A stretch of DNA of 64,000 bases from Stramenopiles sp. TOSAG23-6 (Eukaryota). The notes under the pieces were generated by a model. The model was not told where the DNA came from and did not search any database. It saw only the letters and a list, made by a program, of their open reading frames with translations. Of the stretch, positions 39,668 to 64,000 are shown one piece after another (position 1 is the stretch's first letter; every line of letters starts with the position of its first letter). The stretch is from the NCBI GenBank assembly GCA_900128565.1, contig LT635913.1, positions 1-64,000 on the forward strand. Direction: 5' to 3'. The translations under genes and the position numbers were made by a program.

Positions 39668-42047
39668 ATGTCGTGTCCTATTCATGCTGTTCGAAACATG
39701 AAAATTTCACCAGGTACATGCCCCATGCATACGAATAAAACTGCCAATATGGCTGGAGACTGGTGGCCAAATCAACTCAATCTAACTCCTCTGAAAAGTC
39801 GGAAAGCGTCCAAACCTCAATCATCAACGTTTAACTACGCTAAAGAGTTTGCAAGTATTAACCTTCCAGAGTTAAAGGAAGACATATTTAAGCTCATGAA
39901 AACCTCTCAAAGTTGGTGGCCTGCTGATTATGGACATTATGGTCCATTCTTTGTACGTATGTCGTGGCACAGCGCTGGTACTTACCGAGTATTTGACGGG
40001 CGTGGTGGAGGTGGAACAGGTATGCTTAGATTTGCCCCGCTTAACTCTTGTAAGTAATATTTTTTGTGTAGTTTTCTCCTTAATGTATCATTTTTCCATT
40101 ACACTTATTTCTCTGCTCATTATCTTTATTATATCATCATAAAATATATGGCCGGATAATGGAAATTTGGACAAAGCTAGGAGATTATTATGGCCAATCA
40201 AAAAAAAGTATGGTCGCAAATTATCTTGGGCTGACCTAATGATTCTAACTGGAAATTGTGCTATGGAATCAATGGGATTTAAAACATTTGGTTTTGGTGG
40301 TGGCAGAGAAGACGTGTATGAACCTGAATCTGAAGTGTATTGGGGTGCGGAAAGAACTTGGCTCTCTGCTGAAAGAGGTGGGTTAGGTGATGCCCTTCAT
40401 AAACCTCTAGGAGCTGTACAAATGGGTTTAATTTATGTCAACCCTGAAGGTCCAAATGGAGTTCCAAACCCTCTTCAATCTGCCGAAGATATCCGTACTA
40501 CATTTGGTAGAATGGCGATGAATGATGTAGAAACTGTGGCTTTAATTGCTGGAGGTCATACGTTTGGTAAGGCTCATGGGGCAGCTGATCCTGGTGTTCA
40601 TGTTGGACCTGAACCAGAAGGTGCTTCAATTGAAGAGCAAGGTACAGGTTGGAAAAATTCTTTTCAAACTGGTTCAGGTAAGGATGCAATTACGTCTGGT
40701 CTCGAAGGAGCTTGGACAGCAAATCCGATACAATGGGACAATGGCTACTTTGAAAATTTGTTTGGTTATGAGTGGGAATTAAGTGAATCTCCTGCTGGTG
40801 CCAAACAGTGGGTGCCAAAAGACAAGAGCGAAGCGACAATGAATAAAGTCCCTGATGCTCATGTGAAAGAAAAACGTCACCCTCCAATAATGTTTACAAC
40901 TGATCTTGCACTCATTATGGATCCAAAATATAAGGTTATTTCGAAACGTTTTCACGATAACCCGGAGGAGTTTCAGTTAGCTTTTGCCAAGGCTTGGTAT
41001 AAACTAACGCATCGAGATTTGGGACCAGTAAATCGTCTTGTCTCCGCTATTGGTGGAAATGTTCCTGAAGCACAACTTTGGCAAGATCCAATACCAATGT
41101 CTAATTCTGTTATTGGTGACTCCGAAATTCAAGAACTCAGAACTGCTGTACAATCTATGTTAAGCGGTGGATCTCTTTCCGTTTCACAATTGGTGAAGAT
41201 TGCTTGGGGTTCTGCGAGTTCTTTCCGACATACAGATTTTCGTGGAGGTGGTAATGGTGCTCGGATTCGTCTCGCTCCTCAAAAGAATTGGGAAGCAAAT
41301 GATCCAGATGAGTTGCAGTCAGTTCTTGAAGTTCTTGAAAATGTACAGAATGATTTCAATAACAGTCATGCTACGAATCCTGTATCTATCGCAGATCTAA
41401 TTGTTCTTGCTGGAAGTGTTGCAATTGAGAATGCAGCGAAGAAGGCAGGTCATGAAATGGTAGTACCATTTCGTCCGGGTCGAGGAGATGCAACCCAGGA
41501 AATGACTGATGTTGAGTCATTTTCTTATTTAGAACCGACTGCTGATGGTTTTCGTAACTATTTGGGACCAGAAGCAAAACAAGGCGAAGCTACACCAGAA
41601 GCTCAACTTGTGGATATGGCACACTTGTTGACGTTGTCAGCTGCTGAAATGACAGTATTGGTTGGTGGTATGAGAAGTCTTGGTGCAAATTCAGGAGGTT
41701 CAAATGTTGGTATTTTAACTGATAATCCAGGGATTTTGTCAAATGATTTTTTCGTTAATTTGCTCAACATGGGAGTTCAATGGGGAAAAGATCCAGAAAA
41801 TCCTGATGCTGCAGTTGCAAAACAAGCTGGACAAGTTGACCCATACCGGGGTACCTACATTGGCCGAGATAGAGAATCTGGAAAGATACGTTGGAGAGCC
41901 AGTCGAGTTGACCTTATATTTGGTTCTCATTCTGAACTAAGATCATTTTCAGAGTATTATGCTTGTGATGATTCCAACAAAGTTTTTGTTGAAGATTTTG
42001 TAAAGGCATGGGTAAAAGTGATGGAATTAGACAGATTTGATGTATGA
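39668..42047 (+). CDS. katG: Catalase-peroxidase; 2 exons (39668-40049, 40150-42047), 759 aa
   Basis: [75 protein letters not shown]-terminal LDRFD. Confidence 0.96.
40050..40149 (+). other. Non-canonical intron GT...AT, 100 nt, not a member of the repeat family
   Basis: TCT T|GTAAGT...CATAAAATATAT|GG CCG GAT restores the invariant Trp of NSWPDN. Confidence 0.88.
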
Positions 42048-42329
42048 AGAAACCATATTGAAATTGTAGGAGACAAGTTCCTCTCTTCATTTACTACCGT
42101 GTTACATATTTGCTCTACCGTGATACATATTTTTTTTAGGTAGGATAAGACAGGAGTTAATAATTGTATATATGAGAATGATTTAAAAAAAAAAAAAAGT
42201 TAACTAATATGTGTATTTTATATATTCAAGAATCGTGAAAGATTCACTGATTAAAAATTAACTGTTTTATGTTGTTTGAATTGCAAAAGATCCACGATGT
42301 ATCTTCATTGTAATATTCTCTTTCCGGCA

Positions 42330-43717: not shown

Positions 43718-44398
43718 ATGATGCGTTGTGGTACATGGTGTCTTCAAAGAACTTTTTCACAATATCGGCATGTTTCAACACATTCCAATAGCAACCAAAC
43801 TGTTTGGCAAGCTCTTGTAACTCGAAGAACTATTGGTGATTTTGATACGACTCGCAAGGTACCGAATGAAACTGTACAAAAAGCTGTAGAAGCTGCAATA
43901 CACGCTCCAAATCATAAACTAACCGAACCTTGGCGAATGGTTTCTCTTGGGCCGAAAGCTTCCGGGAAACTTGCAGAATTGTGTGGAGCACATGTAGAAA
44001 AAATCAAAGGAGAGCGTGCAGGAAAAAGAAAAACCGAGAAATGGAAAGCTGTCCCTAACTGGATGGTTTTCCTGTCTAAAAATCAAACAATCACTCCAAC
44101 ACATACACACAACACAACTGAACCTACAGAAATGACATATACACAGATAGAGGATTATGCAGCTACTTGCTGTGCATTGCATAATTTTACACTAGCACTG
44201 CATGAGTCTGGTGTTGTTAGTAAGTGGAGTAGTGGAAGTATTACTCGTCAGCAGGTATTTCGTGATTTAATTGAAGCAAATAATGACGAGATAATTGTAG
44301 GTTTAGTAATGTTTGGATATCCTGACGCTAAAAAAAAGAAGAAAAAGCCACCTCTAAAACGAAGGGGTATATTAGAATGTTTATATTCCGTACCATAA
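43718..44398 (+). CDS. Nitroreductase-family protein (YdjA-like)
   Basis: TRRTIGDF, AAIHAPNHKLTEPWR, EDYAATCCALHN, IVGLVMFGYP. Confidence 0.88.
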   Translation: MMRCGTWCLQRTFSQYRHVSTHSNSNQTVWQALVTRRTIGDFDTTRKVPNETVQKAVEAAIHAPNHKLTEPWRMVSLGPKASGKLAELCGAHVEKIKGERAGKRKTEKWKAVPNWMVFLSKNQTITPTHTHNTTEPTEMTYTQIEDYAATCCALHNFTLALHESGVVSKWSSGSITRQQVFRDLIEANNDEIIVGLVMFGYPDAKKKKKKPPLKRRGILECLYSVP

Positions 44399-44435
44399 TT
44401 AAAAGTTTCCATAGTATATATATTATCAGCATTTC

Positions 44436-45456
44436 TCATAAAATTGTCTCTGTTCTTTTTTTAGTACTACTTTGAACAATTTCTGCAACGCCACCCAAAT
44501 ATGGTTGGACAGCAAGAGTCCAATTACATGATCCAGAGACTGACGTCGATCCAATTTTTATATCATTCTTAAAGAATATTACCTTGATATTATCGTTGCA
44601 CACATTTTTGTGATTTTTTTGATTTTTTTGATTTGTTTTATTTTCATTTGCAACAATTTTTACTCCAATGGTGTCACCCTCCGTATATACGTTTTCATTT
44701 ACGCTGTTTTTTTCATCAACACCAAAAGACGTTTCTTTCCTATTATTCATCAATACTCCGCGTGAGTGCCAAACAATAGCATTTGGTGTTCTACCCAAAC
44801 TTTTGAATGGTGCTTTCATGCTGTTTTTTGCAATTCCTATTAAAATGTGTATAGTACTTGAATTATAATATTAATAAATAAGAGTATAACTATGACGGAT
44901 AATATTATATTTTTCAGTGCAAAATGTAGAAAATACCAGCAAAACCACCAACACCATTTTTGATTACTTTGACCTCCCAATAGCATTGAGGTTTTTCTTT
45001 ATTATACACTGCCAGACATGCACCATAGCCTGCTTGGCGAGTAGTCGCCACAACCGTTCCCATAGGAGAGATATCGAGATGTTGGTGATGTCTTCCCCAT
45101 ATACAACTCTGCAAATCGCGCTCATTTTTGTTTTGCTCTATATCTGAGAAAAGTTGCTGTGTCCAAAGCGGTACTCGTAATTCAGATATTTTTCTCGGCG
45201 TTTTTGTAATGCGTTTCACCGGTATTTTAGTGCCGTCCACTGCGATACCTCTAACCCGACGCGACCTTCGTTTTGGTAGAGGTGCAGTATTCTCTGTTTG
45301 TTTCTTTTGTTTATGAGTCAGTGTTCGCTTTTTTGGTTTACCGATTACAGCTGTATTTTTATTCGGGTCTAATCCAAGACTCCGTAAAACTGCTTCATTC
45401 TTTTTTATGTTTTCAAGGCGCCTTATTTCATAATTTGATAGTGTTTGCATTGTCAT
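44436..45456 (-). CDS. SPRY-like domain protein with LSNYEIRRLENIKKN N-terminal motif; 2 exons (45456-44937, 44836-44436)
   Basis: YWEVKV...GFAGIA...GDTIGVK...VIFFKND; GT-AG intron restores the frame. Confidence 0.72.
44837..44936 (-). other. Intron GT-AG, 100 nt, non-family
   Basis: GCT G|GTATTT...TTTTAATAG|GA ATT joins two ORFs in frame. Confidence 0.75.
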
Positions 45457-45713
45457 ACTATGTCAAATTGCCCTTTGGGATTCATTGATTCATTATAATA
45501 AATCGACAAGTCTCGCTCCTTTAGGATTAAGTTTTTGATGTTCGAATTTCCAAGGATTTTTGAAAATTTTGACCCGCGCTCTTTTTTTGACCACGTGTCA
45601 CGGGTGTCAGTTTTTTTTTCGTTTTTTTTAAACCACTCAAATTTTTTTGTCCTTCGTGAACACAACCAACAAATTGTATTAAATATCGCCTTCGTGTGAT
45701 ATTAATTTTCAAA

Positions 45714-48299
45714 ATGTATCGTTTTCGACAATATAGTTTGTCTCATATTCGGCATGATAGAGTTTTATCGCGTATTATGCCATATAAGGCTTTTTCTTCT
45801 ATATCTGATGTCTTTGAATCTTTAGAATACACAACAGCACCAGAGAATGACGAAGCTGCCCGAGCTTGGCTGGCTAGTCATGATCATACATTCGGAATGT
45901 TCATAAATAATAAATGGCATAAACCCGAAAATCGTGAAATGTGTTCATCATTTTGTCCTGCGACTGGCGAAAAAATAGCAGATACTTTCCAAGCAAATAG
46001 TGACGATGTAGATGCTGCGGTTTCAGCGGCACGGGAGAGCCAAGTTAGTTGGGCAGCACTCCCTCCACATGCGCGATCACGTCATATGTATTCCATCACC
46101 CGGCATTTGCAAAAGCACCAGCGATTATTAGCCATCATTGAAAGTCTTGATAATGGGAAAACTATTAGAGAGACACGAGATGTTGATATTCCTTTGGCAA
46201 TTCGTCACTTTTATTCTCATGCAGGTTGGGCACAAGTCATGGATCGTGAATTAGCTGATCAGAAACCCCTCGGCGTCGTTGGACAAATTATTCCTTGGAA
46301 TTTTCCGTTTTTGATGCTCGCTTGGAAAATTGCCCCAGCAATAGCAATGGGTAATACGGTTGTTCTAAAGCCTGCCCCATCAACAAGATTAAGTGCATTT
46401 CTTTTTGCAGAAATTTGTGTTGAGGCTGGAATTCCCCCAGGTGTAATTAATGTTGTATCTGGTGATAATGAAATGGCTACACATCTTGCAGCACACCCTG
46501 ATTTAGATAAGCTAGCATTTACTGGATCAACAGGTGTTGGAAAATATCTTCGAGAAATAACAGCTGGTACTGGACGAAAGTTGTCTTTAGAACTTGGAGG
46601 GAAAAGTCCAATCATAGTATATGATTCATGTGATGTAGACAGTGCTATTGAAGGACTTGTTAATGGTATATGGTTCAATCAAGGTCAAGTATGTTGTGCG
46701 GCGTCGCGGTTATTAGTCCAAGAAAGTATTGCTGATACATTTCTAAAAAAGTTAAAACAAAGAATGAAAAAACTTCGTCTGGGAATGTCGTTGGATAAAT
46801 CTGTTGATATGGGACCTTTAATTAATGATACACAAAAAGCTAGGGTTCAAGCATTTATTGATATTGGTAAAGACGAAGGTTGTGACATCTTTCAGACAGA
46901 GTATCCATCAGAATTAAATGATCAAGGAAGCTTCTTCCCACCGACACTTGTGACTAATGTACAGCCAACATCATCATTAGTTCAAAATGAAATATTTGGG
47001 CCTGTATTAGTGACACAATCTTTTAGAACTCCAGAAGAAGCAATTGCACTTGCAAATAATACTAAATATGGTCTATCTGCTGGTGTCTGGACGGAAAACA
47101 TTGGTTTAGCAATGGAAGCAGCAATGTCAATCAAAGCAGGTGTGGTTTGGATAAATTGTCATAATTTATTTGATGCAGCTGCAGGTTTCGGTGGATTCAA
47201 AGAATCTGGATTTGGACGAGAAGGTGGAAAAGAAGGGTTGTATCAGTACACTCGTCCTGTGTGGGAAACTCAGGAGGTTGATGGTGTTTATAAGGCAAAA
47301 GAAATTCCTACAGCTTGGAAAGATAATGAAAAATCTTGGGGTCGAGCAGCAAATGCGAATCCTATAGAATTTCCAAATTCTCTTGGTATTCATCTGAAAC
47401 AAATTGATTTACCCTCATCAAAGACATTTGATAGAATGAATCTTTTGCCTACTATTGATAGAACACCAAAAATGTACATTGGAGGGAAACAAAAACGTCC
47501 AGATGGATGCTATGTAAAACCAATTTATTCATTTGATGGACATTTATTAGATCAAGTAGGTGAAGGAAATCGTAAAGATATTCGAAATGCAGTAGAAGCA
47601 GCACGAAATGCTAAACCAGGTTGGGGTAAAAGAGCTGCGCATAATCGTGCACAAATACTATATTATATTGCAGAAAATTTAAATATTCGTCGAGAAGAAT
47701 TTGGGGAACGTATTGCGCATATGACTGGTGAAACGCGAAGTGAAGGTATTAGAGAAGTAGATGCTGCAATAGATAGATTATTCACGTATGGTGCATATGC
47801 AGATAAATATGGGGGTAATGTTCAAGAAACTACTTTGTATGGATTAACAGTGTCTATCAATGAACCTGTAGGTGTAATTGGTATTATTTGTCCTGATAAA
47901 CAACCATTATTAAGCTTTGTTTCACTCGTAGCACCTGCTGTTGTTAGAGGTAATACTGTTGTTGCTGTACCCAGTCAAAAGTGTCCTTTAGCAGCTACTG
48001 ATTTATATCAAGTATTTGATACATCAGATCTACCTGGTGGTGTTGTCAACATTGTAACAGGAGAGACAGACCCATTAGCTAAAACATTAGTGGAACATCA
48101 ACATGTCGATGCAATATGGTATCATGGAAGTGCGGAAGGGTCATACCATGTGGAACGTTTATCCTCGGGTAATATGAAGAGAACTGTTGTTAATTATGGA
48201 CGAGATAGAGACTGGTTCGATGAAAAACAAGGTGCGGGTGAATCTTTTCTAATGGATTCAACTGAAGTGAAGACAATTTGGGTTCCAATGGGAGAATAA
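45714..48299 (+). CDS. ALDH16-like two-domain aldehyde dehydrogenase with presequence
   Basis: IIPWNFP, FTGSTGVG, LELGGKSP, NQGQVCCA, EIFGPV, then a second ALDH-like domain (DRTPKMYIGGKQKRPDG...KTIWVPMGE). Confidence 0.9.
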   Translation: MYRFRQYSLSHIRHDRVLSRIMPYKAFSSISDVFESLEYTTAPENDEAARAWLASHDHTFGMFINNKWHKPENREMCSSFCPATGEKIADTFQANSDDVDAAVSAARESQVSWAALPPHARSRHMYSITRHLQKHQRLLAIIESLDNGKTIRETRDVDIPLAIRHFYSHAGWAQVMDRELADQKPLGVVGQIIPWNFPFLMLAWKIAPAIAMGNTVVLKPAPSTRLSAFLFAEICVEAGIPPGVINVVSGDNEMATHLAAHPDLDKLAFTGSTGVGKYLREITAGTGRKLSLELGGKSPIIVYDSCDVDSAIEGLVNGIWFNQGQVCCAASRLLVQESIADTFLKKLKQRMKKLRLGMSLDKSVDMGPLINDTQKARVQAFIDIGKDEGCDIFQTEYPSELNDQGSFFPPTLVTNVQPTSSLVQNEIFGPVLVTQSFRTPEEAIALANNTKYGLSAGVWTENIGLAMEAAMSIKAGVVWINCHNLFDAAAGFGGFKESGFGREGGKEGLYQYTRPVWETQEVDGVYKAKEIPTAWKDNEKSWGRAANANPIEFPNSLGIHLKQIDLPSSKTFDRMNLLPTIDRTPKMYIGGKQKRPDGCYVKPIYSFDGHLLDQVGEGNRKDIRNAVEAARNAKPGWGKRAAHNRAQILYYIAENLNIRREEFGERIAHMTGETRSEGIREVDAAIDRLFTYGAYADKYGGNVQETTLYGLTVSINEPVGVIGIICPDKQPLLSFVSLVAPAVVRGNTVVAVPSQKCPLAATDLYQVFDTSDLPGGVVNIVTGETDPLAKTLVEHQHVDAIWYHGSAEGSYHVERLSSGNMKRTVVNYGRDRDWFDEKQGAGESFLMDSTEVKTIWVPMGE

Positions 48300-48475
48300 A
48301 ACTTTACTTTTTTCTTTATTTACATCTTAAAGTAAGAGATTTTTATGTAAGAAAAAAATACGTAGAGATTTTGTCTTTTCAATAAATTATGAATACAAAT
48401 AGAAAATATTCGAAAATATTCGAAAATATTGATTCAAAAGTTTTATTTCTTTTAAAAATATTGAGAAACCACTTG

Positions 48476-50086
48476 CTACTTTTTGACTGAACTTTGCTTA
48501 TTCGTTCGGAAAACAGTATCTAGATTTTTCTTTCCAGCGGGCGTCAAATTGGGATATATACACATTCTCATTTGTTCTTGAAATACTTTCTTTTGATCGT
48601 CCGTCAACAATGGATACAGACTAGTCCTCTGCTTCCTGAAGTATTCATTCACACGTCTTCTGCTGAAAAGAAATCCACGATTTTTGCTGTTCAAATCTGA
48701 CAGCTTGGAGTACATTACTTTCATTCTTTTCGAATCTGCAGTGATTCTTTCGTTCAGCTTTTTCAATTTTGTTGCTTCTTGATCCAGCATCAATTTCATT
48801 TCTAATCTCGCTTTTTTTTGGTGATACGCTAACTTTGACTTCATATCTTTATTCTTTTCGTTAATGATATTAAAGAGACATGAATTAAGAATTTTCATAC
48901 GCGAATCATTATTACCGCTATATCCATTATTATTATTATTATTACCATTTGATATTTGTGAAATTCGGCGTTTCTTATTGCTTCCATTAGAATTCTTCTT
49001 GGTTTCACTCATTAAAAAGGCAAGCACACCTTCAATATCATTCTTTAAATTAAATTTCTTTGAACGTCCTGAATAATATGGCGCAGTTGCCAAATGTTTA
49101 CTTATTCCTTCTATACATCTTTCTTGTAATGAAGCTAAAACATTATTCGGCTTTTTCTTACCTTGAAGAATCCATTCATTTCCAGCTTGAGGATATCTAA
49201 ATACGCAGTTTAGCATTTTTAATGCTGTGCCACAATCCAATGATGGCATCATAGTAGGATTTGCAACTCTACTGATAAATTCTGCATTGACCTCTTCATT
49301 ATGTAAATTTCTAGAACAATACTCAGAAACTACACGACAAATAGCATAGGATTTTCCTGAATAATAAACTTTCCAATATTTTTTATCATTAGCATATTGT
49401 TCAATAATTTTCCAGATCTCAAGAAATAATGGAACAGAGAACTTGCAAATTAAATTTATTGGCGCTTCGAGTTCTTTCATCTCGTAAGTCACATAACGCG
49501 CACAGCCTGGCGCCGTCGTTGTCGTCGACAACGACAAGCAACGAAATTCTAATAAAGATTGTGCAGTTTTTTTTAGTGCTACTGCTAAAAGCTTTTCTAA
49601 GGAATAAACACAGGCTTCTTTCACATATACAACTGCGTTATACTCGGTACAAATATCTTTTTCCATAAATGCAGTGGTTGCTTTATCAAGCTCACGGCAT
49701 CTAAGATATTGAGCAAGATAAAACAAAGGAACCACGTTTTCTGTTGTTGCCTTAAATGTACCATGATAAACAAAATTAAGAAGAGAAGGAAATGCGGTGA
49801 CAGCTGATTGTTTCATAACCAGTTTGCTTTCATTTCTCCGATTTTCAGAAAACGAATCATTTTTTAATAACGTCGAAAAATACTCTAGTCGACGCGCCCC
49901 TCCTGCAATAACGTTTTGGTGACAATGATATGATGTGCCAATATCATCACTCCCTTCAGTTTCGACTATAATTGTCCAGTTTGAAAAGCAATCAGATTCA
50001 TCCGTGTGCCAAGTAAGCATAAGCTTTTCTTCAGGAGGATCATCAAAATGGGTGAATCCTCCAAAATCATTTGATTCATTTGACAT
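48476..50086 (-). CDS. BTB/POZ-domain protein
   Basis: FSNWTIIV...YHCHQNVIAGG...EYFSTL...FPSLLNFVY...LAQYL. Confidence 0.8.
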   Translation of the reverse strand: MSNESNDFGGFTHFDDPPEEKLMLTWHTDESDCFSNWTIIVETEGSDDIGTSYHCHQNVIAGGARRLEYFSTLLKNDSFSENRRNESKLVMKQSAVTAFPSLLNFVYHGTFKATTENVVPLFYLAQYLRCRELDKATTAFMEKDICTEYNAVVYVKEACVYSLEKLLAVALKKTAQSLLEFRCLSLSTTTTAPGCARYVTYEMKELEAPINLICKFSVPLFLEIWKIIEQYANDKKYWKVYYSGKSYAICRVVSEYCSRNLHNEEVNAEFISRVANPTMMPSLDCGTALKMLNCVFRYPQAGNEWILQGKKKPNNVLASLQERCIEGISKHLATAPYYSGRSKKFNLKNDIEGVLAFLMSETKKNSNGSNKKRRISQISNGNNNNNNGYSGNNDSRMKILNSCLFNIINEKNKDMKSKLAYHQKKARLEMKLMLDQEATKLKKLNERITADSKRMKVMYSKLSDLNSKNRGFLFSRRRVNEYFRKQRTSLYPLLTDDQKKVFQEQMRMCIYPNLTPAGKKNLDTVFRTNKQSSVKK

Positions 50087-52911: not shown

Positions 52912-53025
52912 GATTTTTAAGTGTTTATGTTCAATATTGAAAAATTAAAAAAAAAATTCATAAATATTATTTTGAATCAACTACTATTTACTAACATTTA
53001 TATTTCCAGGTTAAAATTTACATTA

Positions 53026-53745
53026 CTAAGAAACAGTTTCATTATTTTTTTCAGTGTTTTTTTCTACTTCTGTAACTATGTCACTTCCTTCAGTCTCTAC
53101 ATTTTCTCTCTTTGAAGACACAGTTTTCTTACCTCTGAAATCTTTAATTCTTGGAAATTGTGCAGACGCTACGGTATTACTGATGGTGTAACCAAATACA
53201 GTTGGCGTGTACGATATATCCAATTTAGGGGGTACATATTCGGGATATGACATAAGCAAGAAATGTGGGAAAGAGCAACCGAAATACGCTCCATCTACAT
53301 ACCTTGCTGCTACTGTCATTGGTGGAACAAACACATCCTGACATTTAGGACAGTATACCATAACCCTTTGTTCTCCAGGAATATCAGATAACCCCACGGG
53401 CAGGACAGGATAGTTATTACACAATATACGTGGACAATTGCCAAAATCCTCATTCTTAAACTTCTTAAACATAAGTTGCTGACCGTGCGTCGTCAATAGA
53501 AAACGAGCGTGTATACGACCGTAAAGGTCCATACACTCTTTACGACTCCATTCCTCTCGGTTCCAGTCATCTGAAGAAGAGTCTGAGTTTACATAATCGA
53601 GAATAATATTGAGGCACTCTGCAAAGTTATGTACTTCAAGGGAAAGTCCATATAGGTTAAAACGACTCTCGATAAAAGAACGATCTACTTGACAGAAAAA
53701 ATCGTGGCCCTCCATAGAGCCAAACCACTGAATCCAGTCCGCCAT
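53026..53745 (-). CDS. CSNK2B: Casein kinase II regulatory beta subunit
   Basis: WIQWF..GHDFFCQVD..FI..FNLYGL, LYGRIHARF, FGNCPRILC, YCPKC, DGAYFG. Confidence 0.95.
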   Translation of the reverse strand: MADWIQWFGSMEGHDFFCQVDRSFIESRFNLYGLSLEVHNFAECLNIILDYVNSDSSSDDWNREEWSRKECMDLYGRIHARFLLTTHGQQLMFKKFKNEDFGNCPRILCNNYPVLPVGLSDIPGEQRVMVYCPKCQDVFVPPMTVAARYVDGAYFGCSFPHFLLMSYPEYVPPKLDISYTPTVFGYTISNTVASAQFPRIKDFRGKKTVSSKRENVETEGSDIVTEVEKNTEKNNETVS

Positions 53746-54198
53746 TAGCCCAAAGAATAAATATACGTATACTGTACAAACGATTCAATACCTCACTGAT
53801 AAATATGGGCACAACACAGTGTGATAATAGCTTGCCTTAATCTCGATTAATATTATTATAAAAGGGTCCACCCTCTTTAGGTCTTGCCACACTCCTGATT
53901 ATTGTTCGATACTCCCGATATATAATATAAACCGCGATATAGTATCTCACCTCGAGAGCTCGCTCAAAAAAAATCGAATGTTTCAAACACGAAATATTTA
54001 GTATTATTGTACAAAAAAAAATTGAAGCTGACTCTCACAATCTAAATCGTTCTTCAATCAAGAATACTACGCGAATACGACTACGGTAGCTATTTTACTA
54101 GCCTACGTAGCTACAAGTACTAAATTCCTAGTTTAGTATTACAAAAGCGCTTGAAAGATCCTGTACAATTATCGAAATTATTCCTTGTAAAAGATAGA

Positions 54199-55017
54199 AT
54201 GTTTTTAATGCGTTCTAGATATTTAGTGCATTGTATGCGTATTTCTACTCCATTTGCGCGTCGAAGGAATAGGTTATTTATATCATCCAGCAGCTATTTC
54301 GACCGCAATTTTAGTATTTTTCCGGATAATAAAAAAGAGAAAGATAATCTTTCTACAAAACAAGAGCATGACACTCTTGATCAAGAGAAGTTTTATACAA
54401 TGGGTCCATTACGCATTCGTGCTGTAAACGTGAACCTCCCAAATGCTCTGACAATAGCACGCATTCTTGCTTCACCTCCTTTATCTGTGTTATATTTACA
54501 AGGTTATTACAAGAGTGCCTTTTTTTTATTCATGTCTGCTGGTGCGTGCGATTTTTGGGATGGTTATCTAGCTAGAAAATGGAACCAACAAACTGTGTTG
54601 GGTGCTATGCTTGATCCAGTTTCCGATAAAATTCTAGTCGCAGCATTAGCCTTGCCTATGGCGTATGACGGTACTTTACCAATATGGCTTGTCACTTTAA
54701 TTATAGGACGTGACGTTGGTCTTGTTGCTGGTGGTTTCTGGCATCGCTTTCGAACAAAACAGCGTGATGAATTTCTATTTGATACAAAAAGAGTGAATTG
54801 GACTGTGGAACCAACATTTGTAAGTAAGTGTAATACAGCTGGTTTAATTGCACTTGTAAGTTTTGGCTTAACAAATAGTGCATTTTCTTTACCTGGTGAT
54901 TTTCTTATACAATGGATGTCGTATGGAGTAGGTTGTACTACTGCTTGGTCTGCTGTCGAGTATATTAATATGTTTGTAAAGAATGACGCTTTCAAAGATC
55001 GAAAGCGAGTCGATTAA
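54199..55017 (+). CDS. Cardiolipin synthase (CDP-alcohol phosphatidyltransferase, CRLS1-like)
   Basis: NLPNALTIARI, DFWDGYLARKWNQQTVLGAMLDPVSDK, IIGRD, PTFVSKCNT. Confidence 0.88.
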   Translation: MFLMRSRYLVHCMRISTPFARRRNRLFISSSSYFDRNFSIFPDNKKEKDNLSTKQEHDTLDQEKFYTMGPLRIRAVNVNLPNALTIARILASPPLSVLYLQGYYKSAFFLFMSAGACDFWDGYLARKWNQQTVLGAMLDPVSDKILVAALALPMAYDGTLPIWLVTLIIGRDVGLVAGGFWHRFRTKQRDEFLFDTKRVNWTVEPTFVSKCNTAGLIALVSFGLTNSAFSLPGDFLIQWMSYGVGCTTAWSAVEYINMFVKNDAFKDRKRVD

Positions 55018-55078
55018 AATGATGAATTTAAATATAGTAAAATTTTGAGACTAGAAACGAAAAATAATTTTTAAAAAT

Positions 55079-57145
55079 TTATAAATTAATAGTCGTCAAC
55101 TCTGTGCCGTCATCGTCCATATCACACTGCGGTTCATCCATATTTCCATGAAGTCTGACATGAACATCATCAGTGTATAATATTTCCGAGTTTGGCATTT
55201 TATCCGAACTCTCTAAGGAATCACTTGGTCGGCCTAAAGGTACTAAATATGGAATGAGAAGTATTGGAAGTAATCTTGTTAAACTGCGGGTCAAAACAAG
55301 CAACTCAATATTATGAAATTCAGGAGCACGAACACCTCCAAAGACTTCCAATAGCCCAACTCCAACATATCCTCCAATGACAGAACCAAAATTTGAAAGG
55401 CCCATTGTCATTGCAAAAAGTGTTGCCTCCATTTTTGGTGGGCATAATTTTGCTGCTAGAATAAAAACTGGCATTGTATTAAATCGACTTATTAAAGGGG
55501 ATATAACTTCTTCGCCTAGCATGAAAGCTTTATCTGATATTCCAAGACTTTTGTTCCAACGTTGAACCCAAATAAGATCCATGTATTGTGAAAAAAAAAT
55601 GTTTTAGTATAAAAAATCCATAGGTACGAAATTTCATACCAACAAGAAAAAACAATTAAATTCATTTTTCAAAACGTACATGAGATTGACAAATACAAGT
55701 GCCAGTTGAGTCATTGCAAAGATTTTTCTGTATGGCCATGAACTAAAATATCTATTGTATAACGCCGTCCCAATGACAAAAAAAATATTTCCTAGAACGC
55801 CAAACCAGGAGTGAATAATGTGAAAAAATATTTTTTTTGTCAAGAAAAATGTTAGGTACAAAATTTTTATGGTAAAAAATGAATGAAAATTCAATTTTGA
55901 AACCATACATAATTTAGGTGAAAAACAGGGACGTTCTCCATAGACCCCATTACAATTTTCTGGGGTTTCTTTTGACCAGTAGTAGATAACTTCTGAATAT
56001 GGTTGCATTGCTCCTTGTAAGAAGATATAAATTGTTACTTGAGCTAATACAGGATTGATTTTAGATTCATAGTAATGTATAACGTAGCAAACAACTACAG
56101 CAATGAGTATACTAAATATACATATTACTGAATTATCAGATACAATAGAAGCAAAACCACCCTTTTCTGAAGAACATATTTTGTATAGTTTGATATTTGT
56201 TAGGTACAGAATTTGGTATAAAATTTAGGTAAAACATTCATGATGAAAACATACCATTGTCAAAGATATAGCACAAACAAATAAAGCCATTTTGATCATC
56301 ACGCCTTGTTTACCATTATTAATTGCATCTTTTAAAGGTTGAATATTTGAACATTTTCTATACGGAGGTTTGTCACGCTCTTCGGGTAGCCATCTTCGCC
56401 AAGCAGGAACCAGTACGGCTAGTGCTGGTATAACACATAAACCGAGAAGGACACGGCTACCAAACCATTCATAAAGAATTCCAGAAGAACAACCAGCAAA
56501 AATTTGACCAATTCCTAAAGACCCCCAGCATAACGTCTGCAAATCAGCGGCATATTTTGGGCGTTCACGACATCTTTTAGCGACAGATGCATCGATCATT
56601 ACATCAGGGGATGCGATGGAGTAATTAAACATAATCAATAATATTGTAACTATTGCAATGCCCAACCCAGGAGAAAAGGCAAATGATAGAGTTGAAAATA
56701 CTCCTGAAAATCCAGCTATACCAATATATGGAGACAGGTGAAGTCCTGAAATTGGAAGTGTATCACTCAATACACCATACATAGATTTAAGTTGCCATGG
56801 AATGTTCCCCACTCCTGACACAACCTGCATTCTATCGGAAGATAGTCCAAGCCCTTTGTGCATTGTTGATTCCGTATCAGAGAGCAGATACCGCATTGCG
56901 AAGAATCCCCAACCTTCACCAATTCCTTGGTTCACACCATACACAGCAACGACAGAAAGCACAAAATATAGACCGAATGTTCTCGTTAACCGGGAAAAAT
57001 ATTTGGCCAGCGTACAAGGAAAAAACATTACATAGTCCACGAATTCTGGATTAACAGGAAGTGTATGAAAGTCACGTATACTTGAATCCATACTTTGGTC
57101 TAAATCAAGGCTATCATCTGTCAATGGATCAAACTTTTGGTCCAT
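55079..57145 (-). CDS. BT1 folate-biopterin transporter; 4 exons (57145-56255, 56161-55909, 55812-55680, 55580-55079), 592 aa
   Basis: PWQLKSMYGVLSDTLPI, DVMIDA, ADLQTLCW, D.IWVQRWN..LGISD, AKLCPPKMEATLFA..MGLSN; exon phases add up. Confidence 0.9.
55581..55679 (-). other. Intron, family copy D, GT...AT, 99 nt
   Basis: CTC AT|GTACGT...GGTATGAAATTTCGTACC...TTTTTCACAATACAT|G GAT gives VNLMDLIWVQRWN. Confidence 0.85.
55813..55908 (-). other. Intron, family copy E, GT...TC (best guess), 96 nt, stop-free
   Basis: TTA T|GTATGG...TGTACCTAAC...AAATATTTTTTCACATTATTC|AC TCC TGG gives FSPKLYSWFG; no AG near the end. Confidence 0.65.
56162..56254 (-). other. Intron, family copy F, GT-AG, 93 nt
   Basis: ATG|GTATGT...CTGTACCTAAC...TTCAGAAAAG|GGT. 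Confidence 0.88.
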
Positions 57146-57419
57146 TGAGTGTGCTGTATTGGCAGAGTTGATATAATTATAACTTAGGCATTTGAATGAT
57201 ATTAACAAGTCATAAAAAATAAAATTGACAGCATGCGCAAAAAAGTAATTATTCGTGTTTTTTTTTTCTGTTAGGACTTCGACTTGACTACTTCGGTCAA
57301 AGGTATTATATATTACCCAGCTAGGGTTATAGTGTCTCTCGAATTCTTGCTCTAAACACACTTCTCTTCACACACTTCTATACCTGTCGAAAAAATATTT
57401 ATCTTAATCTTTTTATATA

Positions 57420-58226
57420 ATGGGCAAACGTGACGAAAATTCTCTCACTAGTACGAAAGACTCGTCAAGCATGGAAGATTCTAATGGTCGTGCATTGAAG
57501 AAACAAAAGATGAGCAAAAGCGATGCGCCGCCCATCAAGGTAAAGGTCGATGCTCCTACGGCTTCACCTGGAATAGTGTCTTCGACGGTAAATACGGCAA
57601 CCCCCCCAATAACGCCCTCTAAAGTTACAGATGAGAACAATGAAGACAAAAACAAAGTAAATACAAATATAGATTCAACCAAACCTTCAACTGTATTATC
57701 CGAATCACAGTGTAAACTTGCGCAGTTCCAGGGTTGGTGGAAACTCGACGTTCAAGCGTCCGAAACTATGAAACCATACCTGGAAACGCTTGGTTTGAGC
57801 GCTACGGCTGTCAAAGCCGCATTAAAAACAGAAACAGAATTCCCATCATTTATTCAATTTAAAGTAACGCCGAAAGAAGTTACTATCAAGCGGAAGTCCA
57901 GACTAAGTAGGCCATCGGATGAAAAAGTAGGTATAAATTATAAGTTGGGTATGACAACCTCTTCAGAAACAAAATACGGACAAGTGATTTCAAATGCTAC
58001 AATTCTTAAAGGTGGTATTCTAAATGTATCTGAAACTAGAAAAGTAAATGGCGAAAAAATTAAATTAAGTAGTCAACGAAAGCTTTTGGAGACAAAAGGA
58101 AATACTTTTAACGTAATTGAACAAATAATTACACTTCATCATATCGGTAATAAAGTGACTGTTACTACAAAGAGAATTTGGCGTAGGCAAAGGAGAGACT
58201 CATCGAATATATTTGTCGCGAGTTAA
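57420..58226 (+). CDS. Hypothetical protein with a C-terminal lipocalin/FABP-like beta-barrel
   Basis: FQGWWKLD..SETMKPYLETLGL resembles the FABP N-terminal GxW motif, followed by beta-rich sequence. Confidence 0.6.
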   Translation: MGKRDENSLTSTKDSSSMEDSNGRALKKQKMSKSDAPPIKVKVDAPTASPGIVSSTVNTATPPITPSKVTDENNEDKNKVNTNIDSTKPSTVLSESQCKLAQFQGWWKLDVQASETMKPYLETLGLSATAVKAALKTETEFPSFIQFKVTPKEVTIKRKSRLSRPSDEKVGINYKLGMTTSSETKYGQVISNATILKGGILNVSETRKVNGEKIKLSSQRKLLETKGNTFNVIEQIITLHHIGNKVTVTTKRIWRRQRRDSSNIFVAS

Positions 58227-58353
58227 AATGTATCAATAGTTAGTATGTGGAGAAATTCCTTAAATATTTATTTAGTACTTTTATATAATTTACTACTAAA
58301 ATATAAATGAAAAAACATTTTTTTTTTACTTTTCATAGTTTTCAAAAGTTGTG

Positions 58354-59802
58354 TCATTTCATATCCGTTAGTATTCTATTTATATAATTCATCATTTTCC
58401 GAAGACTTCTGCGACTGGATTTTTTTCGCGGTTCAAGGTTATCTTCCAACTCATTTTTGATGAATTTTAGTTTTTTATTTAACCAATCTGTAGACGCACC
58501 ACGCCATTCCGAATGAGAAGAACAGTATAACAATAAACCTGAGTTTTTGTTATTTTTATAATTTTTCATGGTAGAGACAGTAGACGTTGACGCAGCTGCA
58601 TTCAAACAACCATTACAAAGTAAAACTAATGACCGACATAACTCACAACGACCTGTGTGTCTATCATAAGTTTCATTGGGAAACGCACAATATTCACATT
58701 TTCCAATTATAGTGGGTTTCTTCTGGATCTGTTGATGCCTTTTTCTCTTTTTTGTGGTATCAGATGAAATATTATCTACACAATCGTTTGATACTGGACG
58801 TGCAATACCACGCCCATCAAATGTGAAATTACTGCCGCGGAAAAGACCATGTTGCCATATTTCTTTTTCTTCGACACTTTCATCTTTTTCGTTGCATTCA
58901 TGTTGACAATTTTCTATTTTTTTTTGATTTTTTGTTTTTTTCTCACAGATTTTTTTATCCGTACCATTACCTTTTACACGATTACATGCGAATGATTCTA
59001 AATATCGATGAATTCCACCCTTAAGCTGAAACACATCTTCTACGCCGTGTCTTTTCATAAGAGCAGAGGCTGTCTCACAACGGATGCCACCTGTACAATA
59101 CATTGCTACTCTTTTATTCTTCAAGTTTAATTTAGAAGCATTTTCATCTAACCATTGAGGAAATGCAGCAAAATTTCGCGTGTTTGGTAAAATTACTTCT
59201 GCGCCTTTTGCCTTTGCGGTGTCCCCAACAGAAAAGTTACCTATACGCCATTCGTATGGATTTCTACAATCTATTACACATAATGGTTTTTTACTTGAAT
59301 TTGTGCCAAAATTCGTATCTAATGGTTGATGAAGATTTGTTTCATTAGAAAATTTGAAATCTCCTGTATCTAATAGAGAATGCCACTCTTGAGGGGACAA
59401 ATGAATACCGGCAGTGTTACTTTTCAAATCAATAGGGGTTTGCATTCCGAGAGAGCATATTTCTTTGACAACTCGACATCGTAACTTTTTACCCTCAAAA
59501 TGCACTGAAGCATCAGGTCCATCACTTTCACTGAGTTTCCAATCAATATTAGTTGATTCAAATAAGGACATATCTTCTGTTTGTCTCATGTACTCATATA
59601 TATTCGCTGAAGTTCCACCAACTGTACCATTTATACCCCGACGACTAATCCGAATACGCCCAGCTAAAGATAGTTTTGCACACAAAGCTGTCTGAGCTGA
59701 AGCAACTGCGGCAGGATCATTCACTTCCGTGTATAAATAATATAAACAAACTAGTCCATTTTTAATAGATTCATTTGTAATGTTCGAACAAGAACCTGTC
59801 AT
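58354..59802 (-). CDS. TSTD2/TrhO (UPF0176) rhodanese-domain protein
   Basis: LYYLY, LAGRIRISRRGINGTVGG, IDCRNPYEWRIGNF, MYCTGGIRCE, QLKGGIHRYL, FTFDGR. Confidence 0.9.
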   Translation of the reverse strand: MTGSCSNITNESIKNGLVCLYYLYTEVNDPAAVASAQTALCAKLSLAGRIRISRRGINGTVGGTSANIYEYMRQTEDMSLFESTNIDWKLSESDGPDASVHFEGKKLRCRVVKEICSLGMQTPIDLKSNTAGIHLSPQEWHSLLDTGDFKFSNETNLHQPLDTNFGTNSSKKPLCVIDCRNPYEWRIGNFSVGDTAKAKGAEVILPNTRNFAAFPQWLDENASKLNLKNKRVAMYCTGGIRCETASALMKRHGVEDVFQLKGGIHRYLESFACNRVKGNGTDKKICEKKTKNQKKIENCQHECNEKDESVEEKEIWQHGLFRGSNFTFDGRGIARPVSNDCVDNISSDTTKKRKRHQQIQKKPTIIGKCEYCAFPNETYDRHTGRCELCRSLVLLCNGCLNAAASTSTVSTMKNYKNNKNSGLLLYCSSHSEWRGASTDWLNKKLKFIKNELEDNLEPRKKSSRRSLRKMMNYINRILTDMK

Positions 59803-60164
59803 TACTAAAACTAATACGTAATAATTTAATAAAGTCCAAAGCTGCTTGCGTGTGAAAAATCTTCTTGATTGACTTGTCGTGCTGAATTCTTCTTCAGATG
59901 GCCTTCAGATGATTTGATTTTGATTTATTTCGTGTGTGTCAATAAAACGGTTAAATAACGGCTGGACAGTAGTATATATTATTGGCTACAGGGTACCCCT
60001 ACACTACTGCTGTAGTACACGTAGGCACCGCATTACTTCTACTACTGATACAAGAACTATTACAAAACGCACATTAAATTTACAATATATCTCTAGCTAA
60101 AACGCCCATATAGCATTAGATTGAGATTATTTTGCAGAAACTTTACGTTTGATATTTTACATAA

Positions 60165-60719
60165 ATGTCAAAGTTTGGGTCACACACGAAAAACGCATTT
60201 CCTTTAGATACACCGTCTGTATTCTATGTCGTTGGTGCTACATCACACGATCCTCTACATCCTCCGGAATATGCCATGACAATGATACCAAATAATATAG
60301 GTACAAAGTCATCAGTATCAAAACAGAATACTATGAAAAAACAATCTCAAACAAGTGGGAAATTCTGGTCAACTACTGGTGGCTTTCCACAGGAAATTAT
60401 CTTAGAGACTGAGGAGTTATGCAAAGTGCACTCATTGAAACTTGCCACAACAGGTGCTGCTTACTTAACTATACGGTTATATCCTGAATCTCATAATTGT
60501 AATGAGGTAGCGATGAGTGTTGTCACTCTTGAGAAATCAGAGCCCTTCAATGTCGGATTCCCTCGTCTACAACGTAAAATAGTTCACTTTTCAGACCAAC
60601 CACCTTGCCGTAGAATTAAAATAGTAATAGAAAAAGTATACAATCAATTTGCGACATTGAGTGATGTACACGTAAATAGTTCACCAATTGAAAGTATAGA
60701 AGAAACAGGAGTAAAATAA
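60165..60719 (+). CDS. IFT25: Intraflagellar transport protein 25 (HSPB11)
   Basis: ATSHDPLHPPE, FWSTTGGFPQEIIL, LQRKI, IKIVIEKVYNQFATL. Confidence 0.8.
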   Translation: MSKFGSHTKNAFPLDTPSVFYVVGATSHDPLHPPEYAMTMIPNNIGTKSSVSKQNTMKKQSQTSGKFWSTTGGFPQEIILETEELCKVHSLKLATTGAAYLTIRLYPESHNCNEVAMSVVTLEKSEPFNVGFPRLQRKIVHFSDQPPCRRIKIVIEKVYNQFATLSDVHVNSSPIESIEETGVK

Positions 60720-60873
60720 TAAAAGGAACTATCTTTTTTAATCATATTCTACTTTTTCACTTGTAATAGCCCTAAATTCACAATAAAAACACTTATTCAG
60801 TAAAATAGCACAGTTTTTCCGATGCTTGAAGTGTTTCGTATTACTACCACACACGCTTGTTACTCCGTTGTAC

Positions 60874-63800
60874 TTACCAAGTTGCTTCACTTGGGTATTT
60901 TCTGTTATTCGTCACTATATTTTGCCTCGCGGATTCCATGATGTTAAGCTGTTGTTTTTCCAGAGTTATCTTGCGAATCCGAGCAGCTGCTGTACTGCCA
61001 TCCCTATTTTGTTTCATTCCGCATATAGAACAACCTTTACTAGGTAAAATATGGGAAGGATTAATAAAGGTACATGTATTTTGGAAAAATATTTCAAAAA
61101 CAAAAAACTTGTTAGGTACAAAATTTCGTACGAAAAATAAATTCTAAAAAAAAATAAAACATACATGTGTTACATTTCCATGGTGCATTTTGTTTTTCTG
61201 TATTATCACTATGCCAAACACTTGTTGCGCTTTTCTTCTTCGGTATACTTTTCCATGATTTTATGGAGATGTTGGAAAGATTTGCATTATTTTCATCATT
61301 TAGATGACTTTGATATTGAAAATTCGAGGTTTGAAAATGTTCACTACTTCTGATATAATTTTCCATCATAGACGATTTTTCATTAGCTTGTATTGTAGAG
61401 GGATGACGACTATTATTAGAATTGAACGTATTCATGCCAGATGATTCGAAATTATTACTTGTTTTTTTTTGGATCGAATGACGCGGGAAACTGCACAATT
61501 CACATTTTGTTGCATCACGATTAAAATTCTCATATGTACACATTTTACAAACCCAATCGGAGGAGGTAGAAGAAAAGGAAACCATGGAGTTACATCTCCC
61601 ATCAATTATATCTAATTCTGAATCATCATCGCGTGTATACGCTGCTTGTACTTGCTGTAATTGTTCTTCTGCGGCCGCCGCTAATGCTTTCAATTTTCTT
61701 GTTTCATCGTCAGCTTTCTTTGCGGCTATGCGATTTTCATATTCAATGCGTTCTTGTTCAATACGACGTTCTTGTTCAATACGACGTTCTTGTTCAATAC
61801 GACGTTCTTCTTCAATGCGACGTTCTTCTTCAATACGACGTTCTTCTTCAATACGACGTTCNAGTTCAAGACGCTCTTGTTCAATACGTTGTTCAATACG
61901 TTGTTGTTCAAGACGTTTCTGTTCAATATTCTGAGATAACACAAAGTCCAAAGTCTCGTTTGCAACATCTGCACATTCGCGACAAGCTGCATTAGCACAA
62001 ATAACAGCAGTATAAGCAGCAGATGCCGCGTTGACACAAAAGGTCTCATTATCAAGAGAATTTGTATTATCAAACTCATTAGCAGCATTGATCATTTGCA
62101 GAGTTCCATTTTTAAATTGGTAAGATTTTGAAGGAGTAATCATCAAAGAATTATTGGCATCATTTACTGCAGCATATTGATCATCATGAAAAGTATTGAT
62201 TACTTCATTCTGTTTAAATATATTTGTATCATCTTTCAATTCTTGTTTCGATCCTTCCAGTGAAACTGTAGCTTTATCTTGTGGTTGTCTTGTAATAATA
62301 TTTGATTCAACGGCTGTTGATTTCCATACATTTTTACTATATGTAGCAGCCTTCGGCAAAGTAGTTGCTTTCTTTCTCCATGAATCTATTTCTGATCGTC
62401 CTACGGTTTGTTCTATAGGGTTTCTTGGAAAGTATGTATTGTGAAAAAATATTTCAAAAAAAAATGTTAGGTATAAAATTTCGTACCAAAAAAAAACTAG
62501 ATTTGAAATTCATGATGGAAATGTACATAGCGGTTTAGAAATTCTTGCAGTTGTACTAGAATGTTTCTCTCGTTGGCTAGGACGTTTGGAAGATATAGGT
62601 GGATAATTTACATTGTTGACTCCATTCGTGTATTTCGTGTATTTTTTTTTTGTTGTTGATGTTGTACTGATTGAAGTTGTTGACGATGAGGCAGAGTTTA
62701 TATCGTTCACTTTCGCTCGAGGGACCAAATTTGATTGAGATACAGTATTAGAAGTTGCTGATGTCACAGGTACATCTGGATTCCTTTGAAGAATTTCACA
62801 CACCATTTCAATAGCACGAATGCATGTATTGTGAAAAATATTTTTTTTTAGTTACAAAAATCGTTAGGTACAAAATTTGGTACGAAAACAAAAATCAGGT
62901 AGAAAAGGGATGATGGAAATGTACATGCATTAGATGATGGTCCTTTGACAACAAGTTCATTAAGACCTTTGTACATTGGTTTTGATGACTCTTGTACAGC
63001 TAGAGAAGTACCTGCATTGTAAAAAAAATAGAAATTAGAAATTCGTTAGGTACAAAATTTTCTAGTAAAAAAAATTAAATCTAAAATTCATAATTAAAGA
63101 GTACCAGTCTCTCGCATAATACGTTTGATGTTGCAACCTGAGGTACCTATTACAGTACCACGCTCTCTTGCAGTAAGTGAATGAAATGGTATGTAGGAAG
63201 CAAACCTTTGCAAAAATTCTGTGGCTTTTGTATGAGCGGCTTGAACTGCCGTGTCTGTACCCGTTATTGTAGCGATGAAAGTTTTCCGGTCAATTGAATA
63301 AGTTGCACCTGTTTCATCTTGAATTCGTTGTATTGTCGCACCTCCAGGACCAATGAATTTAAGCATTTTTTCAAGTGAGCCAAATTCAAACGTTTTCTGT
63401 GAAGATGACATTGGGCGGGGTTTCTTTTGAGATTGTGAGTTTCGTTTGACTGGAGCAACAACAGTTTTTAATGGTACCTTACGAGCTCGTGTGTATGAAG
63501 GAAGGACTCCACTCTTCCCCCAGGCACTCCGCACTATTCTAGGCTTAGGATGAGATTGATTTGACAAGCCACCATCATCTATATTTGATGTTGTGATGGA
63601 TTTGACTGAATCGATGTTAGATCTACAATAAGGACAACTAGCTGCCTGTTTCTTTGCTAGAAAGGTCTGACGCCAGCTAGATAAACACCCATCGCAGAAT
63701 TGATGACGGCACGGTCCTATTTCCACATCAACCAGATTAACCGTACAAACAATACATATGCCTTCAGAATCACTCTCCATACAACTGTTAATTTTATCAT

Positions 63801-63933: not shown

Positions 63934-64000
63934 GATCTTTTGAATACGCTAAGGTAATGTTGTATGTTTTCTTTGTGATGGAAATAAATCAATTTAATGA

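Follow-up and report, generated by a model that had tools for sequence, protein, structure and literature searches.

A transposon-like intron family probably spliced at AT instead of AG in a 64-kb window of a stramenopile genome

Few signals in eukaryotic gene expression are as constant as the terminal AG of introns. In a 64,000-nucleotide (nt) stretch of contig LT635913.1 from Stramenopiles sp. TOSAG23-6 (GenBank assembly GCA_900128565.1; hereafter the window), about half of the introns need exact removal at a 3' end that is not AG. A reading of the window made from the sequence alone (the sequence-only reading) had attributed this to a spliceosome with a relaxed requirement for the terminal G. 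We find that the phenomenon is better described as a transposon-derived intron family, in which a target duplication supplies the non-AG 3' end, together with at least one unrelated GT..AT intron, located in a catalase-peroxidase (katG) gene. The observation is beyond chance. We regard it as very probable that these non-AG 3' ends are truly spliced, in one register or the other, and as fairly probable that the register is GT..AT specifically. The full account that we favor is that GT..AT introns are spliced by the U2-type spliceosome of a MAST-3-like stramenopile and that this capacity is exploited by an introner family; we consider it to have a somewhat better than even chance of being correct.

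To characterize these introns, we re-derived the ten that had been listed for the window. All ten were confirmed in place, apart from two 5' ends, which were fixed in the process. They are 89 to 101 nt long with a GC content of 16 to 27%, versus 42% in katG exon 2. All ten begin with GTA; AT is the required 3' end of five and AG that of four, and for one (55813-55908) two registers compete. Judged against U2-type GT-AG introns, the set has a 5' consensus resembling GTRNGT, and the terminal AG is present in 4 of 10. Seven of the ten introns carry the motif CTAAC at 33 to 40 nt from the 3' end, and the exact branch motif was not found in the katG, 55581, and 44837 introns. The introns are as follows, with exon letters in lower case and a slash at each junction.

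40050-40149, plus strand: katG intron, ctt/GTAAGT...ATATAT/gg
55581-55679, minus strand: AT intron of a BT1 transporter gene, cat/GTACGT...ATACAT/gg
61074-61164, minus strand: AT intron of a RING/KH gene, cat/GTATGT...ATACAT/gt
62434-62526, minus strand: AT intron of the RING/KH gene, tat/GTACAT...ATACAT/ac
62824-62924, minus strand: AT intron of the RING/KH gene, cat/GTACAT...ATACAT/gc
32212-32300, minus strand: GT..AG intron of the repeat family, in an EF-hand/acyltransferase gene with a 644-amino-acid (aa) open model
44837-44936, minus strand: GT..AG intron outside the family, with a 308-aa open model
56162-56254, minus strand: GT..AG family intron of the BT1 gene, placed by frame and homology
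63012-63104, minus strand: GT..AG family intron of the RING/KH gene, its AG in the columns where other copies have AT
55813-55908, minus strand: the "TC" intron, a degenerate family copy of 96 nt

The junctions were assessed in three genes whose products have recognizable homologs or domains.

39668-42047, plus strand: katG (catalase-peroxidase), exons 39668-40049 and 40150-42047
55079-57145, minus strand: BT1-family transporter gene, four exons and three family copies, with P0242 and others as homologs
60874-63948, minus strand: gene encoding a RING domain, two KH domains, and two RanBP2 zinc fingers, five exons, with Pfam matches to RING, KH_1, and Zn_ribbon_RanBP

The katG product is 63 to 65% identical to full-length catalase-peroxidases. 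Its intron (100 nt, 22% GC) lies outside the repeat family, and its boundaries can be placed as GT..AT or else as the implausible TG..TA or TA..TG; AT..AC is impossible. No AG occurs from intron position +21 to the W codon. Exon 1 ends in ...LRFAPLNS, and the 27 nt that follow the intron encode WPDNGNLDK. Within the 10-residue motif after the junction, all 110 matched homologs share W, P, D, N, L, K, and A, and 109 of the 110 share the second D (the matched homologs being those, among 119 at full length, that fitted a regular expression for the context). The closest named homolog, P0001, carries a EukProt label containing "MAST3," and its N terminus matches that of the window gene. The public P0001 model takes an AG 27 nt into exon 2 and lacks the 10-residue motif; this public coding sequence is mis-modelled. 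The same model also omits a stretch of the N-terminal region, reading PLK...KLKEDIF where the window gene is longer. Homology thus points to a GT..AT register for katG, and this is the only unambiguous intron of the type. Because an intron unrelated to the family also ends in AT, tolerance of a terminal T would be a property of the host machinery. The relaxed spliceosome proposed in the sequence-only reading is therefore plausible, and removal at non-AG ends survives our re-analysis, but the case for relaxation comes from a single intron, that of katG, and there from homology alone.

In the BT1-family gene, the Pfam BT1 matches fall in exons 1, 3, and 4. Across the 99-nt intron at 55581-55679, the profile continues from positions 261-298 in exon 3 to positions 302-431 in exon 4, with a split Met codon between them, and the junction product FVNL-M-DLIWVQRWN, joined as FVNLMDLIWVQRWN, is consistent with the homologs (28 of 150 were matched by the regular expression). 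At 56162, frame and homology call for the acceptor AAAAG and not for TTCAG 5 nt upstream, and the resulting junction TM/GGFAS aligns with GMGLFAT of P0242. The first AG past the branch is therefore skipped at this intron, which hints that branch distance matters.

Removal of the four family introns from the RING/KH gene leaves one 898-aa open reading frame (ORF) with a terminal stop only, and retention of any one of them adds 2 to 27 stops. The intron at 61074-61164 (91 nt) interrupts the codon for the second Cys of RanBP2 zinc finger 2. Its junction, WKCNTC/TFINPSHILPSKGCSIC, rebuilds W-K-C-N-T-C/T-F-I-N-x7-C-S-I-C, which resembles the other zinc finger of the protein, located upstream and not interrupted by an intron. 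The remaining two AT introns, at 62434-62526 and 62824-62924, are 93 and 101 nt long, and the latter precedes the final helix of KH domain 2, where the joined NA/CIRAIEMVCEIL has its counterpart in TAVQAAHTKATEFL of KH domain 1. Motif restoration at AT junctions, as previously claimed, is thus real for katG, BT1, the RanBP2 zinc finger, and the KH helix. Elsewhere in the RING/KH gene, an imperfect tandem repeat at 61690-61920 encodes (E/Q)ERRIE heptad-like units.

Of the ten introns, all but katG and 44837 belong to one repeat family, which thus has eight members among them, a point that the sequence-only reading underplayed. An nhmmer search with a profile derived from these four AT copies of the family found nine copies with E <= 2.6e-4, all of them on the minus strand; the ninth copy (1-98) is not among the ten introns. 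The copies are spread over at least four genes and lie in sense orientation within minus-strand genes. Two further members of the family were located in the window.

1-98, minus strand: family copy cut by the window edge, 5' flank cat/GTATGT, visible 3' end ...AAAATACA
18338-18408, minus strand: degenerate partial family copy, intergenic and outside coding frames, E=0.0013

The fragment at 18338-18408 indicates that family copies are not all coding-region introns. In an alignment of the family (A1), mean column identity is 63%, and the GTA of the 5' end and the TACCTA of the branch motif are invariant. The family also keeps a T-rich tract, a 5' splice site of the form GTAYGT or GTACAT, and the branch-like motif TACCTAAC; in seven copies the branch A of this motif is 33 to 40 nt away from the 3' end. 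The preceding exon ends in AT in 7 of 9 copies (eight complete copies and the edge copy), for which we estimate a binomial p of ~1e-6, taking p(AT) as ~0.09. All four complete AT copies terminate in TACAT, giving the layout AT/GTA...TAC-AT/, often inside a palindromic CATG or TATA. The AT direct repeat (7/9) and the short inverted termini GTA...TAC are transposon signatures, and from its sequence the flanking repeat looks like a 2-bp target duplication of the kind left by a DNA transposon whose inverted termini are short. We observed no empty site, and we infer transposition with target duplication from these signatures.

Seven of the family copies fall within 8 kb (55500-63110), three in the BT1 gene and four in the RING/KH gene; the remaining 56 kb hold two copies and one fragment. 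This clustering may reflect local hopping of the element. At the 62824 junction, the spliced mRNA (62809-62939) reads AATGCATGCATT, a perfect 12-nt palindrome, which together with the CATG or TATA at the other AT copies suggests a preference for symmetric target sites. Scanning metagenome contigs with a 16-nt core motif yielded 118 loci, none of which was a family copy by the family hidden Markov model (HMM), so these are chance matches. A longer gapped pattern gave four loci in genome contigs, none of them family copies, and no loci in viral contigs.

The AT repeat flanks both sides of the four AT copies, and the two possible registers, which the sequence-only reading did not point out, are therefore indistinguishable from mRNA. 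An alternative to GT..AT is that the family introns run from AT to AC (ATGTAY...AATAC) and that the major spliceosome excises them by means of A(+1)-C(-1) pairing, with katG as a separate oddity. AT-AC introns are handled by both U2- and U12-type spliceosomes, so this terminal pair is already known, and the 2-nt shift that it calls for works in 4 of 4 complete AT copies with the mRNA unchanged; at 55581-55679, for example, the shifted intron would be 55583-55681. U2-dependent AT-AC introns were listed by Sheth et al. 2006 (PMC1557818), standard aligners would label the family AT-AC, and a survey of marine mirusviruses describes AT-AC introns, enriched in one virus family and with WCTAAC as the branch consensus (PMC12768974). 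Those viral introns could belong to the class seen here and indicate hosts of this type; the viral contigs that we scanned with the family pattern yielded nothing. Three observations speak for the GT register. The katG intron cannot be read as AT..AC. As a 5' splice site, ATGTAY matches no known consensus, whereas GTAYGT, which starts 2 nt later, is a good U2-type sequence. Finally, the AG of 63012 and of 32212 occupies the alignment columns that hold AT in the other copies, and not a position two bases past their end. We therefore consider the AT..AC alternative unlikely, though more probable than the other alternatives.

The degenerate copy at 55813-55908 is the one whose two registers would give different proteins. 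It is in frame and free of stops, and it can be removed as GT..TC (giving KLYSW), removed as AT..AT at 55815-55910 (giving KFHSW), or retained; in the last case the BT1 transporter would gain 32 residues, most of them hydrophobic. The shifted register gives F, as in 18 of 28 homologs (the others being Y in 4, L in 2, V in 2, I in 1, and W in 1), but it also gives H in the next column, where Y occurs in 6 homologs and H in 0 of 28, and it ends in AT, not AC. With 8 homologs the F looked invariant; with 28 it does not, and the two spliced readings score about equally. U12-type introns were considered as well. Their consensus is RTATCCTT at the 5' end and TCCTTAAC at the branch, 10 to 26 nt from the 3' end; the 5' ends GTAAGT, GTAYGT, and GTACAT and a branch 33 to 40 nt from the end rule them out here.

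We compared public RNA and DNA runs with positions 44001-64000 of the window, a range outside which katG lies. The word shares of the RNA runs (0.06-0.12) and the uncovered parts were not used as a guide to expression level or habitat. Record 6 of metatranscriptome X10 (151 nt) joins 55679-55758 to 55509-55579 with 99 nt skipped (c/c ambiguity). Because the aligned parts are contiguous and 99 nt are missing, this record corresponds to the predicted 55581-55679 junction, and one AT junction is thereby seen in RNA. In the polyA run X9, record 30 has 19 letters that were left unplaced and then aligns from exactly 62527, the exon base adjoining the 62434-62526 intron; this bears on the donor side only. 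Among DNA records, X3 (a DNA metagenome) record 13 spans 60390-61097 with 0 differences and reproduces the AT at 61074-61075; the concern raised earlier, that AT ends might stem from assembly error, is met at 61074 by a record independent of the assembly. X3 record 11 runs from 53489 to 56557 through the BT1 introns with no joint. Depth in the three bins with family copies was 16544, 1320, and 3156 in X3, versus about 5-10 in most other bins. The same bins had depths of 1.2, 2.5, and 1.2 in X9 and 0.3, 0.18, and 0 in X10, where other covered bins mostly had 0.1-2.7. These low values fit the removal of family introns from mature RNA, contig depth being a poor measure. Bin 58675-59341 reached depths of 212 (X9) and 1721 (X10), mostly through contigs 90-95% alike, which is probably cross-mapping of a conserved, highly expressed gene from other organisms.

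These data also bear on whether the AT junctions are used at all. They might instead be bypassed through downstream AGs or intron retention, lie in recently disrupted genes, or be artefacts of single-cell assembly. Each of the five AT introns has an in-frame, open GT-AG alternative that keeps its donor (katG, +27 nt; 55581, +33; 61074, +39; 62434, +48; 62824, +48). The sequence-only reading had discounted such acceptors too broadly; its argument that they delete conserved motifs holds, with 9 to 16 residues lost, but open and in-frame choices are available. Likewise, its statement that no AG lies between the core motif and the intron end needs an exception for copy 61074, which has an AG 4 nt past the branch motif. 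One of the downstream in-frame AGs is used in the public P0001 katG annotation, the database proteins include no spliced katG or KH fragments, and the stop-free 55813 copy could be retained. Set against this, the 27 nt dropped by the katG AG model encode homolog-invariant residues, and the AG alternatives elsewhere lose the partner of a zinc-finger cysteine pair, the KH helix, and the BT1 motif. One RNA contig carries an AT junction, and the AT at 61074 is also present in an independent metagenome contig. Moreover, at ~63% column identity the copies are not of very recent origin, and still the ORFs around them are intact. Nonuse of the AT junctions is accordingly a very improbable explanation.

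Several observations weigh against GT..AT splicing by the major spliceosome as we propose it. In the family AT copies, the boundary slides by 2 nt between GT..AT and AT..AC with identical mRNA. The 55813 copy, the sole one able to discriminate between the registers, favors neither, and in the GT register its TC end is left unexplained by a rule of A followed by T or G. Between its branch and the site used, each family copy contains four to six further ATs. At copies 56162 and 63012, both of which end in AG, the exon ends in TG and not in AT. The RNA evidence for the AT junctions is thin: X10 record 6 has 2 mismatches, where neighboring X10 contigs have 0, and may come from a sister strain; an intron-less allele would look identical. 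In X6, a run labelled RNA, the family bins have depths of 2976, 50, and 310, a DNA-like proportion, and this run may contain DNA or unspliced RNA. A database search for transcript-derived protein fragments over the katG junction returned only the unspliced ORF of the window itself (100% identity), and the equivalent search over the KH-gene junctions returned none. Finally, the intron census is a sample of one 64-kb window.

On the GT..AT account, an AT-rich introner of ~90 to 100 nt, probably a DNA transposon resembling a miniature inverted-repeat transposable element (MITE), would insert repeatedly into genes in sense orientation. The target would be AT, often within YAT/R, and would be duplicated on insertion. 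The element would bring a U2-type 5' site (GTAYGT), the branch site TACCTAAC, and a T-rich tract, and its 3' boundary would be formed by TAC plus the duplicated AT, such that the mRNA is restored only if the element and one AT are removed. The major spliceosome would then remove GT...AT, a helix of cauGUA with UACAUg arising from the duplication and the termini may help to dock the non-AG 3' end, and some copies would later have mutated from AT to AG at the same position. Of this account, the data show the family, its flanking AT repeat, the restored frames and motifs, and one RNA junction; the spliceosome as the machinery, the GT register, insertion with duplication, and the part played by the helix are inferred. 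The four to six spare ATs in each copy mean that AT alone is not the 3' signal. Candidate additional signals are the distance of 33 to 40 nt from the branch to the end and pairing between the 5' junction and the 3' end. Minimum free energy (MFE) folds place cauGUA opposite UACAUg in 4 of 4 AT family copies. By eye, U/GUA of katG can be paired with its terminal UAUA in the same register, and its MFE fold has no terminal helix; the last seven bases of the katG intron, AATATAT, are identical to the family AATACAT at 6 of 7 positions.

The same pairing could be taken to mean that the helix itself sets the cuts, in a structure-guided and possibly non-spliceosomal excision like that of euglenid nonconventional introns or Amoebophrya introner elements. 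The 5' and 3' junctions are paired in the MFE folds of 4 of 4 AT family copies, junction direct repeats with inverted termini are hallmarks of the Amoebophrya and euglenid elements (PMC7789003; PMC11282704), and the noncanonical introns of diplonemids are also described as paired at their ends (PMC12621601). This helix is, however, only 5 to 6 bp and follows automatically from the duplication and the short inverted termini. It is missing, with the AT flank, from the AG copies and missing from the katG MFE fold, and conservation within the family is highest at a U2-type 5' site and at the CTAAC branch motif, which lies 33 to 40 nt from the end. We thus regard excision guided by structure as highly unlikely. 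Euglenid-type nonconventional introns as such were rejected: the helix occurs in 4 of 4 AT copies, but the borders and the T-rich tract are conserved. Group II introns were rejected too, 89 to 101 nt being too short for their six-domain structure and Rfam giving 0 matches in the window.

We treat the host as a marine stramenopile near MAST-3, because the best named katG relative is labelled "MAST3" and seawater metagenome runs are among the public runs containing window DNA. Assignment of the window to the nuclear genome of a marine heterotrophic stramenopile close to MAST-3, which is part of our best reading, is reasonably likely. Besides P0001, close relatives of the katG product occur among stramenopile transcripts (MMETSP, Triparma) and include many catalase-peroxidases of bacteria (62-65% identity). 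In base composition the window is AT-rich, its 2-kb segments having 32-41% GC, and genes are densely packed in it, with long ORFs on both strands and few, short introns; it contains five N letters, one of them at ~61862. Scans of the window for Rfam families and for tRNAs gave 0 matches each, and Pfam searches of the remaining split ORFs, aimed at further introns, gave nothing usable. As a generalization of GT..AT splicing, we give about even odds to the proposal that MAST-3-like stramenopiles no longer require the terminal G, and that they carry GT..AT introns as a standing major class, perhaps thousands per genome and seeded by introners, with the 3' site chosen by branch distance and by pairing of U/GUA with UAYAU.

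Lineages with abundant, transposon-like noncanonical introns are already known, namely Amoebophrya, euglenids, diplonemids, and Fritillaria. What is unusual here is one defined non-AG class, most likely GT..AT, among such transposon-derived introns, making up about half of the introns seen. One close parallel is with the introners of Micromonas, Aureococcus, dinoflagellates, and many aquatic protists, which likewise are repeated, similar introns found in unrelated genes in sense orientation. Surveys of introners reportedly started from annotated introns. As in the window, introners show target-site-like duplications spanning the junctions; the element itself bears one splice site, and the duplication completes the second (PMC9860276). 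Noncanonical 5' sites (GC, GA) are described in the available part of that survey, which reports no non-AG 3' ends (PMC9860276), whereas here the AT duplication yields an AT 3' end. Amoebophrya is also a marine protist, with repeated introns, direct repeats at the junctions, and inverted ends that can pair, and a majority of its introns are reported as non-GT-AG (PMC7789003). According to the same account, however, no dinucleotide dominates in Amoebophrya and U1 was undetected (PMC7789003), whereas in the window GTAYGT and CTAAC are conserved and the ..AT class dominates. Euglenid and diplonemid introns share with the family junction repeats resembling target-site duplications, pairing of the ends, and a suspected MITE origin (PMC11282704; PMC12621601). 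As described in those sources, they lack a polypyrimidine tract or conserved borders, and euglenid introns are released as circles (PMC11282704; PMC12621601); the window family, in contrast, looks spliceosomal.

Introns with the same termini occur in animals and plants as single exceptions. Sporadic GT-AT introns in five model genomes are listed as 7 of 66 noncanonical U12-type introns and one conserved U2-type intron, in DGCR2, and GT-AT is described as splice-competent for the U12 type (PMC1557818). In the window, the introns lack the U12 5' site and branch spacing, and the AT-ending class, unlike these GT-AT and AT-AC exceptions, amounts to about half of the introns seen. In Fritillaria borealis and other tunicates, the major spliceosome is reported to have adapted to noncanonical termini on a mass scale (PMC13326754). 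The lineage and the dinucleotides differ from those here, and what is reported for Fritillaria includes no comparable repeat family (PMC13326754). Our literature search, which covered GT-AT and non-AG splice sites in introners and protists (supplementary tables aside), found no lineage in which GT-AT is a major class, in agreement with what the sequence-only reading had supposed. Term searches showed that a single-cell genomics paper on MAST (PMC5778133) mentions introns in its methods only and does not mention splice sites and that a paper on Incisomonas (PMC12614181) mentions neither; "introner" was absent from the marine-stramenopile literature (MAST-3, MAST-4, Nanomonadea) among the matches listed. 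Group II introns have the termini 5' GUGYG...AY 3', with an A-pyrimidine end like that of the present introns. This end is echoed by the GT..AT class that we propose, in which pairing would guide the choice of site.

Gene models restricted to GT-AG would be wrong at introns of this kind; P0001 loses a catalytic-site motif in this way, and aligners would mislabel the family as AT-AC "minor" introns. If GT..AT splicing is true, an abundant, free-living ocean protist with AT at the end of about half of its introns would be a natural system for studying how the 3' splice site is recognized in the second catalytic step, and a transposon would be able to create working introns without supplying an AG.

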